From NCBI GenBank assembly GCA_050299335.1, contig JBNKVT010000021.1:76756-140755 (forward strand): a stretch of DNA of 64,000 nt. Reading direction: 5' to 3'. This DNA is from Paracoccaceae bacterium (lineage in GTDB: Bacteria; Pseudomonadota; Alphaproteobacteria; Rhodobacterales; Rhodobacteraceae). Numbering within the stretch: the first letter of the stretch is position 1; each line of letters opens with the position of its first letter. Under the pieces are notes generated by a model. The model was not told where the DNA came from, did no database searches, and was given only the letters and a program-made list of their open reading frames with translations. Made by a program: the position numbers and the translations under genes. This document shows positions 51,546 to 60,689 of the stretch, in pieces.

Positions 51546-52328
51546 GTGATTTTGAGACGGTCAGTCAGGCATTTCCGCAGCACCGGTCTCGCGCTTGCCT
51601 GCCTTGCTGCAAGTGCCGGAGCAGCTGTCGCCCAATCCGACTCGCCGAATACCAGACTGGAGATCGAGCGCGGTGACAGCGCACGGGCCTATGCCGAGCG
51701 GTTGCGCTTCTCGCGCATCCAGAAGGACATCTTCTATATCGACGAGCTGAACCAGCCGATCCCGATGAACGGCCTGCCGCGATTCGAGCGCCGTCCCGAG
51801 CCCGAGGTGGAAGACGTCCCCGATCTGCGTCCGATAACGGATGGCGAACGCTGGGGCACCATCGCGCTCTTCGCCGCCCTTGCCTTCATCGTCGCCTTCG
51901 TCGCCTACCGCTTTGGCGGCGGCTTTGGCGGCAGCTTCCGCAAGGGCCCCGACACCGGTAGCCGCGAGACCCGCCAGAACGGCCGCACCCGCCCGGTCTA
52001 CAGGCCCGAGACCCCGACCGAGATTCTGCTGAACCAGCTCCGCGCCATGGAGGATCGCCGCGAGGCGCTGGTGACCCTTATCGAACATCTGCTTCCTGCT
52101 GCGGCGCACCAGAACGACATCCGCCTCGGCCGCTCCGAGACCGCCCGCGAGATCATCCGCCGCCTGCCGGTGAAATGGACCATGCTGCCGGAACTGAAGC
52201 GCATCGTGATGACGGAGGAACTGGTGCAGTTCGGCGGCCGCGACCTGCCCGAGCGCACCTTCGAGGACTGCCTCCGCCGCGCCGTTCCCATCCTCGACGG
52301 GGCCTCCAGACCGAGGATGGCGGCATGA
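51546..52328 (+). CDS. Signal-anchored protein, tentatively DUF4129-like
   Basis: N-terminal signal peptide. Mid-protein TM (WGTIALFAALAFIVAFVAY). First gene of the MoxR operon. Confidence 0.45.
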   Translation: MILRRSVRHFRSTGLALACLAASAGAAVAQSDSPNTRLEIERGDSARAYAERLRFSRIQKDIFYIDELNQPIPMNGLPRFERRPEPEVEDVPDLRPITDGERWGTIALFAALAFIVAFVAYRFGGGFGGSFRKGPDTGSRETRQNGRTRPVYRPETPTEILLNQLRAMEDRREALVTLIEHLLPAAAHQNDIRLGRSETAREIIRRLPVKWTMLPELKRIVMTEELVQFGGRDLPERTFEDCLRRAVPILDGASRPRMAA

Positions 52329-53635
52329 GCGCGAGTTCCGACAGTTCCGCGCCGCGCGGCGATTATTCCTGGGTGGTGATCCTGGCCCTGGTCGCCTTCG
52401 GCGCCATCTGGCTTCTGACCCGCAATCCCGAAATGCCGCTCGGCCGTTCGGCGCTGGGCCATGACGGGCTGATCGCCTGGGCCAGGGGCGAGCAGTTGGA
52501 GGTCCGCGGCACGCTGGTGCGCGAGATGCAGCCCGAGGCGATGGGGCTGCGGCTGCTGCCGGTTTATGACACCGATCTCGAGGACAGCTTCCGCCGCCCC
52601 GACACCCAGGCCGAATATCTCAAGACCGGCACGGAATTCGACATTACCGCGGACGTGATCCGCGAGAAGGCCGGGCTGCTGGAGACCGTCGTCATCGCTC
52701 CGAAATGGACCCGCGCCATGCGCCATTCGGGCTATGCCCATGCGAGCCTGCTGCTGGACCCCGAGGATGTCGAGCGCCCCCTCACCCAGATCGGCACCCT
52801 GCCGACCCGGATCGTCCGGCCCGAGGCGAAGTCTCTGACCATCGCGGCGGAGACCTTTCTAGAAGGCGGCACGGCCACGCTCTACGCGCCGCAATTGTTC
52901 CACCCCGACCTGCCCGGGGACTGCCGTTCGCTCATCGGCGACAGCAATGGCCATCTGCTGGTCGAATGCGGTGACAAGAAAACGCGGATGCTTGGGCTTT
53001 CCGATCCCGATCTTCTGAACAATCACGGCCTAAATCTCGGCGACAATGCCGCGCTGACGCGGGCCCTGATCGCCACCCTCGACAGCGGTCTGCCGACCAT
53101 TGTCGACACCTCGACCCGCGTCATCCTCAGCCCGGCGCCCCCGGTCCTGCACAAACGCGAATGGTCAGACCTCTTGCGCTTCTTCGCCTATCCCTTCTCG
53201 CTGATCTGGCTCGGAGTCGGGGTCCTCACCCTCCTCGCCATCTGGCGCTCCGGCATCCGCTTCGGCCCGCCCCGCAAGGTCTTCGAAGACGCCATCGGCG
53301 CCTCCAAGGCCGTTTCCATCGCCGCCAAGGGCCGGCTTTTGCGCTTGTCCGGCAACGACCGCGAGCTTGTGGAGAAACAGACCGAGAACATGATCCAGGA
53401 CCTTGCCGCCGATCTGCTGGGTCCGCACCGCCGCGCCGATTCGCTGCGCCAGCTTGTGGCGCTGGTGGCACGGCGCAATTCCGACCTGGCGTCGGAATTG
53501 TCAGCGGCCCATGCCCGCGCTATGACGGTGCGTCATGATGCGTCTGTCGGCCATATGCTTGATCTGCTGAGCGATTTCGAAGCCAAGCTTGAAAAGGTAA
53601 GATATGAATTTGGAAGAACTTCAGTCCCTGGCTGA
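52325..53635 (+). CDS. DUF4350-like membrane protein
   Basis: N-terminal TM (YSWVVILALVAFGAIWLL), a large central domain and a C-terminal TM. The ATGA overlap with the upstream gene is typical. Confidence 0.5.
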   Translation: MSASSDSSAPRGDYSWVVILALVAFGAIWLLTRNPEMPLGRSALGHDGLIAWARGEQLEVRGTLVREMQPEAMGLRLLPVYDTDLEDSFRRPDTQAEYLKTGTEFDITADVIREKAGLLETVVIAPKWTRAMRHSGYAHASLLLDPEDVERPLTQIGTLPTRIVRPEAKSLTIAAETFLEGGTATLYAPQLFHPDLPGDCRSLIGDSNGHLLVECGDKKTRMLGLSDPDLLNNHGLNLGDNAALTRALIATLDSGLPTIVDTSTRVILSPAPPVLHKREWSDLLRFFAYPFSLIWLGVGVLTLLAIWRSGIRFGPPRKVFEDAIGASKAVSIAAKGRLLRLSGNDRELVEKQTENMIQDLAADLLGPHRRADSLRQLVALVARRNSDLASELSAAHARAMTVRHDASVGHMLDLLSDFEAKLEKVRYEFGRTSVPG

Positions 53636-54560
53636 GAAAATCCGCGCCGAGATCGGCAAGGCCGTCCACGGGCAGGACGAGATCGTCTCGCAATTGCTGG
53701 TCGCCCTGTTCGCCCGTGGCCACTGCCTGCTGGAAGGCCCCCCGGGCACGGCAAAAACCCTGCTCGCCCAGTCGCTTGCCGCCGCCATGAAGATGGATTT
53801 CGGCCGCATTCAGTTCACTCCCGACCTGATGCCCGGCGACGTGCTCGGCACCAATATCTTCAATTTCGCCACCTCGGAGTTCACCCTCACCAAGGGCCCT
53901 GTCTTCACCGATATCCTATTGGCGGACGAGATCAACCGCGCCCCGCCCAAGACCCAGGCGGCCCTGTTGCAGGTGATGAACGAACGCGTCGCTACCATCG
54001 ACGGCACCGATTATTCCTTCGGCAACGACTTTTTCGTCGTCGCCACCCAGAACCCGATCGAGCAGCAGGGCACCTATCCGCTGCCCGAGGCCCAGCTAGA
54101 CCGGTTCCTGTTCAAGCTCGACATCCAGTTCCCCGCTGACGAGGCCGAATTCGAGATTCTCACACGCCACGCCGCCCAGCCGCTGGACCACGCCGCCAAG
54201 ACGGCGGACGTCGAACCCGTCGTGTCCTCCGAGGACATGGCCGCCGCGCGCGGCATCATCGACGATATCCGCCTCGACCGGACGATCCTGCGCTACATCC
54301 TCGACCTCGTCCGCGCCACCCGCGAAGACCCCGAGATCCGCTATGGAGCCTCCACCCGCGCCGCCGACGCCATCGCCGGAGCGGTGCGCGCCATGGCCGC
54401 GCTCGAGGGCCGCGACTACGCCATCCCAGACGACGTCCAGCAACTGATCCTGCCCGCCCTCCGCCACCGCATCATCCTCGGCCCCACCGCCGAGATCGAG
54501 GGGCGGACCGAAGAAGACGTCATCGTCAACATCCTCAACCGGATCGAGGCACCCAAGTAA
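53604..54560 (+). CDS. MoxR-family AAA+ ATPase
   Basis: Walker A GPPGTAKT. MoxR signature ([26 protein letters not shown]). Confidence 0.9.
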
Positions 54561-59743: not shown

Positions 59744-59888
59744 CAGTGGCCCCTGCCCCGGCATCCCGGCTGCGGCAAATCGGCATCAAACCGTCGGTGA
59801 AAATGCTGCACGGGTCCGCTCCCCTCTTGCGCGGGGCGTCAAGGCACCGTTGACTCGCGCGCACTGCTTGACCGAAAGGGAGACAACC

Positions 59889-60689
59889 ATGACGGCCAAT
59901 CCTGACACACCGACCACACCGCTGGGGGTCGGATCGCTGATCTCCGAGAGCTTCGGCGTCTTCTTCGCCCGCATCGTCACCATGTTCAAGATCATCTTCC
60001 TGCCCATTCTCGTCATGGGCGCCATCTCGGCCATGGTCTCGGGCCCGGCGATGATCACCGGCATCGGGACCATCACCGGCGATGTCGATCCCGAACAGCT
60101 TGCACGCTTCAGCAATCCCGGCGTCTTCGAGCAATATATCCTGCCGCTGATCGGCGTCGTGGTCAGTTTCGTGATCACCGGCGCGGTGATCCTGGCCGCC
60201 TATGACACAAAGCTCGGCCGCCCGGTGAACATCCCGGCCTATTTCAGCCGCACCCTGGCATTCCTCGTGCCGCTGATCGTGCTGTCGATCGTGCTGGTCA
60301 TCATGGGCTATATCGGCCTGTTGCTGCTGATCCTGCCCGGCATCTACATCTTCGCCCGGTTCAGCGTCCTGACGCCGGCCATCGTCGTGGAGGGCGTCGG
60401 CTGGGGCGGGCTCGGTCGCGCACAGGAGCTGACCGCAGGCTACCGCTGGCCCATCGTCGGGGCATCAATCCTGCTGGTCCTTGCCATCATCGTGATATCG
60501 CTGGTCATCGCCGGACTGACCTGGCTTGGCTACACCATCGCCGGGATTGTCGGCTACACTCTGGTCTATGCCATCGGCAACACGATCACCACGGGGATCA
60601 TGGGCTGTTTCACCGCCCTTCTCTTCGCCAGGCTGAAGGAGATCAAGGAAGGCGTCGGCATGGCCGATATCGCCTCGGTCTTCGAATAG
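59889..60689 (+). CDS. Polytopic membrane protein, paralog 3 of 3
   Basis: The start was reset to MTANPDTPTTPLGVGSLISESFGVFFA (AAGGGAG RBS). LTAGYRW. C-terminus IKEGVGMADIASVFE. Confidence 0.6.
   Translation: MTANPDTPTTPLGVGSLISESFGVFFARIVTMFKIIFLPILVMGAISAMVSGPAMITGIGTITGDVDPEQLARFSNPGVFEQYILPLIGVVVSFVITGAVILAAYDTKLGRPVNIPAYFSRTLAFLVPLIVLSIVLVIMGYIGLLLLILPGIYIFARFSVLTPAIVVEGVGWGGLGRAQELTAGYRWPIVGASILLVLAIIVISLVIAGLTWLGYTIAGIVGYTLVYAIGNTITTGIMGCFTALLFARLKEIKEGVGMADIASVFE

Follow-up and report, generated by a model that had tools for sequence, protein, structure and literature searches.

A predicted nine-gene MoxR-DUF58 membrane operon in which tandem membrane-protein paralogs mark one of two operon subtypes

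Few AAA+ proteins are as widespread as the MoxR ATPases, yet to our knowledge a target is known for only a handful of them. What might such an ATPase act on when it is encoded among membrane proteins? We examined this question at a locus in a 64,000-nt stretch of DNA (the window) from a Paracoccaceae bacterium (GenBank assembly GCA_050299335.1, contig JBNKVT010000021.1, positions 76,756 to 140,755); all coordinates given here are positions in the window. Nine consecutive open reading frames (ORFs), all on the plus strand, fill the span from 51546 to 60689. The first six, which we call the core, encode in order a DUF4129-like protein (g1), a DUF4350-like protein (g2), a MoxR ATPase (g3), a DUF58/vWA protein (g4), a SpoIIM-like protein (g5) and an RDD protein (g6). 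The remaining three (p1, p2 and p3) encode membrane proteins of a family that we refer to as PAR, whose full-length sequences here share 29-34% identity with one another (E 1e-19 to 1e-26). An earlier annotation drawn from the letters of this DNA, hereafter the sequence-only reading, had named the six core genes in this order and described the last three as tandem paralogs on the same strand, and our analysis supports it on both counts. We found two subtypes of this operon, one of which is defined by the presence of PAR genes and by how many copies there are. We hold the nine-gene anatomy and the linkage of PAR to the operon with high confidence.

The arrangement of the genes reads as a single co-directional operon made up of the six-gene core and three PAR copies. 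We predict one operon because the core junctions overlap and terminator-like hairpins occur only after p3. All five junctions from g1 to g6 overlap, by 4, 32, 1, 4 and 4 nt; the sequence-only reading had recognized the overlaps and counted them at four of the five junctions. It had also placed a gap of 61 nt between the RDD gene and p1, which is where the gap lies, at a length of 60 nt. The gap between p1 and p2 measures 86 nt, and that between p2 and p3 either 106 nt or 145 nt, depending on whether p3 starts at TTG 59850 or ATG 59889. The ATG is most likely the start of p3, giving a 266-aa product, because an AAGGGAG Shine-Dalgarno sequence lies upstream and the resulting N-terminus agrees with those of the other paralogs and of homologues. 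No terminator-like site was found in any intergenic gap from g1 to p3. Two hairpins with long, perfect arms (GGATCAGATTG..CAATCTGATCC and TTTCAGACTG..CAGTCTGAAA) follow p3, in the interval between this gene and a convergent YtoQ-like gene, and probably mark the end of the transcription unit. A scan for sigma-70 promoters detected no promoter-like site, and an Rfam search of positions 50000-61500 returned no RNA element.

We examined the conservation of the core by scanning GTDB species genomes with an alignment of the SpoIIM-like protein, which yielded 80 loci from Rhodobacterales and Hyphomicrobiales. The six core genes kept an identical order and strand in every one of the 69 loci that were not truncated by contig ends, and g1 was the first gene in all 69. 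The genes that flank the operon in the window (PhaR, pheT and thiolase) were not found beside it in the other genomes among these 80 related loci. Because the order of the core is constant while its flanks are not conserved, the operon appears to be a self-contained, moving module. Comparison with related genomes had been named as the way to detect a chance juxtaposition of genes; the uniform order and strand in 69/69 loci and the adjacency of RDD and PAR genes rule that explanation out.

PAR genes are linked to the operon in both directions of search. Downstream sequence of 1 kb or more was available for 71 loci, and 34 of these carry a PAR gene directly 3' of the RDD gene. Copy number ranges from zero (37 loci) through one (18), two (11) and three (3) to four and five (1 locus each), and where PAR genes are present they come right after the RDD gene, which in every case closes the core. 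For the reverse test we scanned metagenomes with the C-terminal PAR motif and counted loci whose upstream sequence exceeded 1.3 kb. An RDD gene lay directly upstream in 42 of 43 such PAR loci, usually with the whole operon. A few loci illustrate possible alternative contexts for PAR. The PAR-family gene at L143 (JAEPEX010000125.1, 9182-10810) is the only one without an RDD gene or MoxR operon in the 9 kb upstream of it, and at two other loci (L134 and L138) no SpoIIM match precedes the RDD-PAR pair. In a further locus (L110, JDSH01000003.1, 3900-9900) numerous short ORFs in differing frames take the place of the whole operon, next to an intact PAR gene, which reflects either a decaying operon or a frameshift-rich assembly.

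The distribution of PAR follows the phylogeny of the core. In a neighbour-joining tree of concatenated MoxR, DUF58 and SpoIIM-like sequences, operons with PAR (PAR+) and operons lacking it (PAR-) form separate clades. The single loss of PAR inside the PAR+ clade occurs at a locus (L004) where metH follows the RDD gene. All six core proteins diverge more between the two clades than within them, and no substitute conserved seventh gene was found in PAR- operons. Both clades mix Rhodobacterales and Hyphomicrobiales, and the genus Hoeflea (L073-L076) occurs in both: the Hoeflea poritis operon is PAR-, and those of three Hoeflea metagenome-assembled genomes (MAGs) are PAR+ with 2-3 copies. Likely sources of this incongruence between operon subtype and taxonomy are horizontal transfer, ancient paralogy or errors in binning. 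Two labels among the loci also depart from the tree. An assembly labelled Oceanobacillus sp. HTM 045 (L057, WNWL01000003.1) carries a Firmicute name and an alphaproteobacterial-type PAR+ operon that shows 63% identity in the SpoIIM-like protein; it sits among Paracoccaceae and is probably a case of contamination or mislabelling. The operon of a Sphingomonas-labelled MAG (L044) nests within the Rhizobium clade. The sequence-only reading had spoken of a variable set of membrane partners, and at the genomic level the copy numbers, the reverse association and the separate clades bear this out. We found no published description of a CysZ/CTL-fold family tied to this operon in a subtype-defining manner; the six-gene neighbourhood itself is already known from annotation and comparative genomics.

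We compared the three PAR proteins with each other and with their relatives. p1 is 34% identical to p2 and 30% identical to p3. The canonical copy is p3, which is about 40% identical to PAR genes in other genomes and scores 274.7 bits against the PAR family profile, compared with 170 bits for p1. The best matches of p1 outside the window are only 25-29% identical, and p1 and p2 together reach only 25-32% identity to any relative outside it. These two genes look like fast-evolving, lineage-specific copies. The region that contains them (57500-59500) has a GC content of 0.58-0.61, compared with about 0.65 around it, and its AT skew is strongly negative; a bias toward hydrophobic codons or a different history of both divergent copies could explain this.

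None of p1 to p3 matched Pfam even at E<=10, and none matched NCBIfam. When 1.84 billion representative proteins were searched exhaustively with a profile, 2669 PAR relatives passed E<=1e-3, of which 424 also passed E<=1e-10; most are 250-300 aa in length. When 105 of these relatives were scanned at E<=0.01 for each model, 12 gave weak matches to UPF0259 (YciC; best E 3.5e-7) and 12 to GPDPase_memb (PF10110; best E 6.8e-5). The window proteins do not belong to either family, with no match of p1 to p3 to these two models at E<=10, and PAR has no phosphodiesterase domain. The pattern suggests that PAR is a distant branch of the UPF0259 (YciC)/GPDPase_memb group, which is a statement of relationship and not of membership. 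One relative (P0126, Ruegeria haliotis WP_176866883.1) bears the UniRef name "Glycerophosphoryl diester phosphodiesterase family protein", yet it is a 265-aa membrane-only protein; the name was probably carried over from the GPDPase_memb domain. Our literature searches found no paper linking PAR, UPF0259 or GPDPase_memb to MoxR.

PAR proteins have six predicted transmembrane (TM) helices, and the modelled structure of p2 adopts a fold like that of the sulfate permease CysZ and of the SLC44/CTL1-PNS1 proteins, so that PAR appears to share the CysZ/EI24 fold. The likeness does not extend to sequence. Identity to these proteins is only 5-16%, p1 to p3 have no Pfam EI24/CysZ or CTL match at E<=10, and EI24 is absent from the matches of the 105 relatives. 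Conservation within PAR clusters in residues 1-28 (PLGxG), 171-197 (GW..L.RS..LTxGYRWP) and 275-293 (RLxEIKEG...VF), and the TM helices are poorly conserved. These three segments are predicted to be cytoplasmic because they are rich in lysine and arginine. PAR thus differs from CysZ and CTL proteins in that its conserved motifs are predicted elements of the cytoplasmic face.

We next consider the proteins of the core. The sequence-only reading had expected domain searches to recover its assignments. They did so above the gathering scores for g3 (AAA_3, PF07726, 200 bits against a gathering score of 27; AAA_lid_2, 79.7 against 22.7), g4 (DUF58, PF01882, 85.8 against 23.4), g5 (SpoIIM, PF01944, 101.9 against 26.9) and g6 (RDD, PF06271, 64.8 against 24.1); DUF4129 and DUF4350 were recovered below threshold, as divergent members, with backing from homologues and, for g2, from its fold. 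NCBIfam returned no specific family for any non-ATPase component. The Walker A (GPPGTAKT) and Walker B (LLADEINR) motifs of g3 are kept in 75 homologues, and g3 is accordingly predicted to be an active MoxR AAA+ ATPase. Its nearest solved structure is 2r44 (E 4e-77). Searches of PDB sequences with g2, g4, g5 and g6 identified no solved relatives.

The putative partner of the ATPase, g4, has an N-terminal TM hairpin at about residues 4-53 by hydropathy. It matches VWA_2 at 22.7 bits, below the gathering score of 27. The first motif of its metal ion-dependent adhesion site (MIDAS) reads ICLDNGYLM in place of DxSxS, with both serines missing, and the D, G and LM of the resulting D-x-G-x-LM are kept across 81 sequences. 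g4 therefore falls outside the vWA proteins with a functional DxSxS-type MIDAS. By hydropathy, g5 and g6 are polytopic with soluble cytoplasmic extensions. The N-terminal cytoplasmic domain of g5 is DUF8413 in precomputed annotation, where PF28475 appears on all homologues listed, and the soluble C-terminal region of g6 (about 120 aa) has no family match.

For the first two genes we compared orthologues from Rhizobium, Hoeflea, Stappiaceae, Cypionkella and the Sphingomonas-labelled MAG. g1 itself scores 22.3 bits against DUF4129 (PF13559; gathering score 24.8), and all five homologues from these other genera match the same model over the same C-terminal region at 16.8-22.9 bits, also below threshold. 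By hydropathy, a Sec-type signal peptide is followed by some 70 periplasmic residues and then by a TM helix at about 101-127, and the DUF4129-like domain (residues 182-245) is predicted to be cytoplasmic. g2 scores 16.8 bits against DUF4350 (PF14258; gathering score 30.4). Four of its five homologues match this model, one above threshold (31.0 bits) and three below, and several database homologues carry PF14258 or the DUF4350 name. Its hydropathy profile predicts TM helices at 12-35 and about 286-309, with a periplasmic domain between them and a cytoplasmic helical bundle at 326-429.

We predicted the structure of g2 with AF2 from database homologues and used it in a fold search. The modelled periplasmic domain has a GldG/IFT52 (GIFT), GATase1-like alpha/beta fold that resembles GldG/IFT52/OST48-type domains and the GH42 middle domain. 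This places g2 among membrane-anchored extracytoplasmic proteins with a GATase1/flavodoxin-like fold akin to those two groups. The result agrees with an HHpred-based prediction of a GIFT/GATase1-like fold for DUF4350 and reproduces the relation of DUF4350 to GldG and the GH42 middle domain described in the same work (PMC5898192). Residues 200-236 of g2 (window positions of about 52920-53035) contain invariant C200 and C215 and a near-invariant SDPDLLNNHGL across 63-65 homologues; these features may represent a disulfide plus a ligand-binding site.

We compared the operon to related systems. In mycobacteria, published annotation assigns MAB_0386c/Rv3695 to RDD, MAB_0387/Rv3694c to SpoIIM, MAB_0388c/Rv3693 to DUF58, MAB_0389c/Rv3692 to MoxR and MAB_0390c/Rv3691 to DUF4350; the orthologues are adjacent in M. 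chelonae, M. abscessus and M. tuberculosis and are co-regulated in M. chelonae (PMC8191103). By this annotation the Rv3690/Rv3691-Rv3695 (moxR2) locus resembles the window operon in the set and order of DUF4350, MoxR, DUF58, SpoIIM and RDD. The sequence-only reading had called the order exactly the same; the order agrees, and the mycobacterial locus differs in that its SpoIIM gene lies on the opposite strand and no PAR genes are reported there. In archaea, Makarova, Galperin and Koonin (2015, PMC5898192) described a module of arCOG01314 (DUF4350), MoxR and vWA genes as a predicted secretion or membrane-remodelling system, together with a bacterial SpoIIM-vWA-COG0714 neighbourhood. The window operon has the DUF4350, COG0714 MoxR and vWA trio in common with the archaeal system, which is accompanied by S-layer-like and Ig-domain proteins and for which DUF4129, RDD and PAR are not described. 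A role has thus been predicted for such modules, which makes the label "functionally undescribed" in the sequence-only reading somewhat too strong.

Characterised MoxR-vWA pairs (RavA-ViaA, CbbQ-CbbO, NorQ-NorD, CoxD-CoxE) consist of an ATPase and an adaptor that act on a specific target or target complex. The window operon resembles these pairs, as well as the Bat/MRP-type MoxR-DUF58 operons, in having adjacent MoxR and vWA genes. It differs from the characterised pairs in that its vWA protein is predicted to be membrane-anchored with a degenerate MIDAS, and in that the partners encoded in the operon are four membrane proteins, whereas those pairs act with a soluble enzyme. Bat/MRP-type operons encode vWA/TPR proteins of the BatA-E type; Pfam scans of all nine window proteins identified no BatA, TPR or second vWA protein, which sets this operon apart from that type.

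We propose that the operon encodes a membrane-tethered MoxR-vWA machine that remodels a membrane complex, with PAR proteins as dedicated clients or effector subunits. In this model, a MoxR hexamer would work on the cytoplasmic side of the inner membrane, held there by the DUF58 protein, whose TM hairpin would anchor a cytoplasmic vWA adaptor. ATP hydrolysis would remodel, assemble or gate a complex of the SpoIIM-like protein, the RDD protein, g1 and g2. The latter two may link cytoplasmic helical domains (DUF4129 and the C-terminal bundle of g2) to periplasmic domains, and the periplasmic domain of g2 has a GldG/IFT52-like fold, a type linked to the assembly of complexes and proposed to bind glycans. 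PAR proteins would be lineage-variable subunits, possibly channel- or permease-like, recognized through conserved, positively charged elements that are predicted to face the cytoplasm, namely PLGxG at the N-terminus, the loop with LTxGYRWP and the tail with RLxEIKEG...VF at the C-terminus. Taken as a whole, this is the best explanation of the locus that we can offer, and we hold it tentatively, as falling somewhat short of probable. The client/effector remodelling mechanism itself is more doubtful. The same degree of doubt attaches to the proposal that PAR proteins are physiological substrates or regulated effector subunits, by which MoxR-DUF58 would assemble, gate or extract proteins of the CysZ/CTL fold. 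The words "clients or effectors" were already used in the sequence-only reading, and they describe a role that we infer.

Several points weigh against the remodelling model. About half of the operons (37/71) lack PAR, and PAR is therefore not a universal substrate. None of the six core proteins shows a particular covariation with the presence of PAR. The PAR genes are spaced by 60-145 nt and have no translational coupling. The MIDAS of g4 is non-canonical, so the usual capture of a target's acidic residue by the MIDAS may not apply. The topologies assigned to the operon proteins derive from hydropathy and the positive-inside rule only, and the functional statements made about the operon are computational throughout. 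Finally, the CysZ-like fold predicted for PAR is also compatible with an autonomous permease.

Under one alternative, PAR proteins would move small solutes on their own, as CysZ-like permeases or channels (taking up anions, for example), and would share a transcript with the core but have no physical interaction with it. We consider this unlikely. The association with RDD in 42 of 43 loci and the clean split of PAR+ and PAR- cores are much tighter than one would expect of a hitch-hiking transporter. Conservation falls on predicted cytoplasmic segments and not on the TM core, the expected location of a substrate site, and no match to the CysZ/EI24 Pfam family was found for the PAR sequences. 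For the CTL/PNS1 relatives, a transport function has itself come into question (PMC13160678).

A role in the envelope or in division has a similarly low probability in our estimation, and it overlaps in part with the remodelling model. Here the SpoIIM-like and RDD proteins would scaffold wall or glycan modification, the GIFT protein g2 would bind glycans, MoxR/DUF58 would regulate assembly and PAR would be accessory. SpoIIM of Bacillus recruits the peptidoglycan hydrolases SpoIID and SpoIIP (summarised in PMC5898192), and the modelled g2 domain resembles GldG/IFT52/OST48-type domains and the GH42 middle domain. Domain scans of the operon and its flanks identified no gene like SpoIID or SpoIIP, the partners of SpoIIM in the sporulation DMP engulfment complex, and the host is an alphaproteobacterium as judged from its relatives; no hydrolase, transglycosylase or other enzyme of this kind is encoded in or beside the operon, and the flanks are not conserved. 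In M. tuberculosis, Rv3694c (SpoIIM-like) and Rv3695 (RDD) were recovered by co-immunoprecipitation with Rv0954, a divisome protein (PMC8093794), which favours such a role, although membrane proteins were numerous in the list from that experiment and the organism belongs to a distant phylum.

It is very unlikely that the operon encodes a secretion apparatus of the kind that Makarova et al. suggested for the DUF4350-MoxR-vWA neighbourhood of archaea. The trio of genes is the same, and DUF4350 was linked to GldG of an ABC transporter associated with gliding and the type IX secretion system (PMC5898192), a fold relationship that our model of g2 confirms. The S-layer-like and Ig-domain secreted or surface proteins behind the archaeal proposal are absent here, and the operon has no outer-membrane component, cargo candidate or conserved neighbour. 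We give hardly any credence to a conflict or anti-phage system with diversifying PAR paralogs as variable sensors or effectors: a PAR copy number of 0-5, the rapid divergence of the paralogs (p1 and p2 at 25-32% to any relative), an operon phylogeny incongruent with taxonomy and a weak bpMoxR match (43.9 bits) would fit it, but PADLOC finds only weak generic P-loop similarity of MoxR (E>=7e-5) and none for the other eight proteins, which led us to judge a defence system unlikely, there is no nuclease, protease or toxin domain, and the six-gene core, itself strongly conserved, is found in housekeeping contexts in many genera and, according to published work, also in mycobacteria and archaea.

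If the membrane-tethered remodelling model is true, PAR would be the first defined membrane-protein client for any MoxR system, and it would provide a functional handle on the Rv3691-Rv3695-type operon of alphaproteobacteria, actinobacteria and archaea. The six-gene operon extends from alphaproteobacteria to mycobacteria (the moxR2 locus), and its core trio reaches archaea. PAR proteins are the first concrete candidates for the target of this machine and replace "function unknown" with a specific proposal. Closely related genera with PAR+ or PAR- operons offer an experimental contrast. The analysis also corrects a likely misannotation of PAR relatives as glycerophosphodiester phosphodiesterases.

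Table 1. Features of the operon and its surroundings, by position in the window.
Feature	Position	Strand	Remarks
Thiolase	47497-48669	-	
Alpha/beta-hydrolase	48767-49987	-	
PHB regulator PhaR	50276-50869	+	
ORF, 163 aa	50954-51445	-	No Pfam match; no homologue in the 80 related loci
ORF, 146 aa	51052-51492	+	No Pfam match
g1, DUF4129-like bitopic protein	51546-52328	+	260 aa; GTG start
g2, DUF4350-like two-TM protein	52325-53635	+	436 aa
g3, MoxR-family AAA+ ATPase	53604-54560	+	318 aa
g4, DUF58/vWA protein	54560-55867	+	435 aa
g5, SpoIIM-family polytopic membrane protein	55864-56877	+	337 aa
g6, RDD-family membrane protein	56874-57824	+	316 aa
p1, PAR paralog 1	57885-58775	+	296 aa; divergent copy
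p2, PAR paralog 2	58862-59743	+	293 aa; divergent copy; modelled paralog
p3, PAR paralog 3	59889-60689	+	266 aa from the most likely start, ATG 59889; ORF open from TTG 59850; canonical copy
Terminator-like hairpin 1	60749-60773	+	11-bp stem, then T-rich tail
Terminator-like hairpin 2	60815-60837	+	10-bp stem, then T-rich tail
YtoQ-family nucleoside 2-deoxyribosyltransferase-like gene	60866-61318	-	214 bits; convergent with p3
pheT	61323-63731	-	YtoQ-like gene immediately downstream

The surroundings of the operon in the window are listed in Table 1. A cluster related to polyhydroxybutyrate (PHB) lies upstream (47497-50869) and is not conserved beside the operon elsewhere. The two small ORFs between PhaR and g1 overlap on opposite strands and are putative. 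On the downstream side, the paired hairpins at 60749-60837 may be bidirectional terminators or a repeated element.

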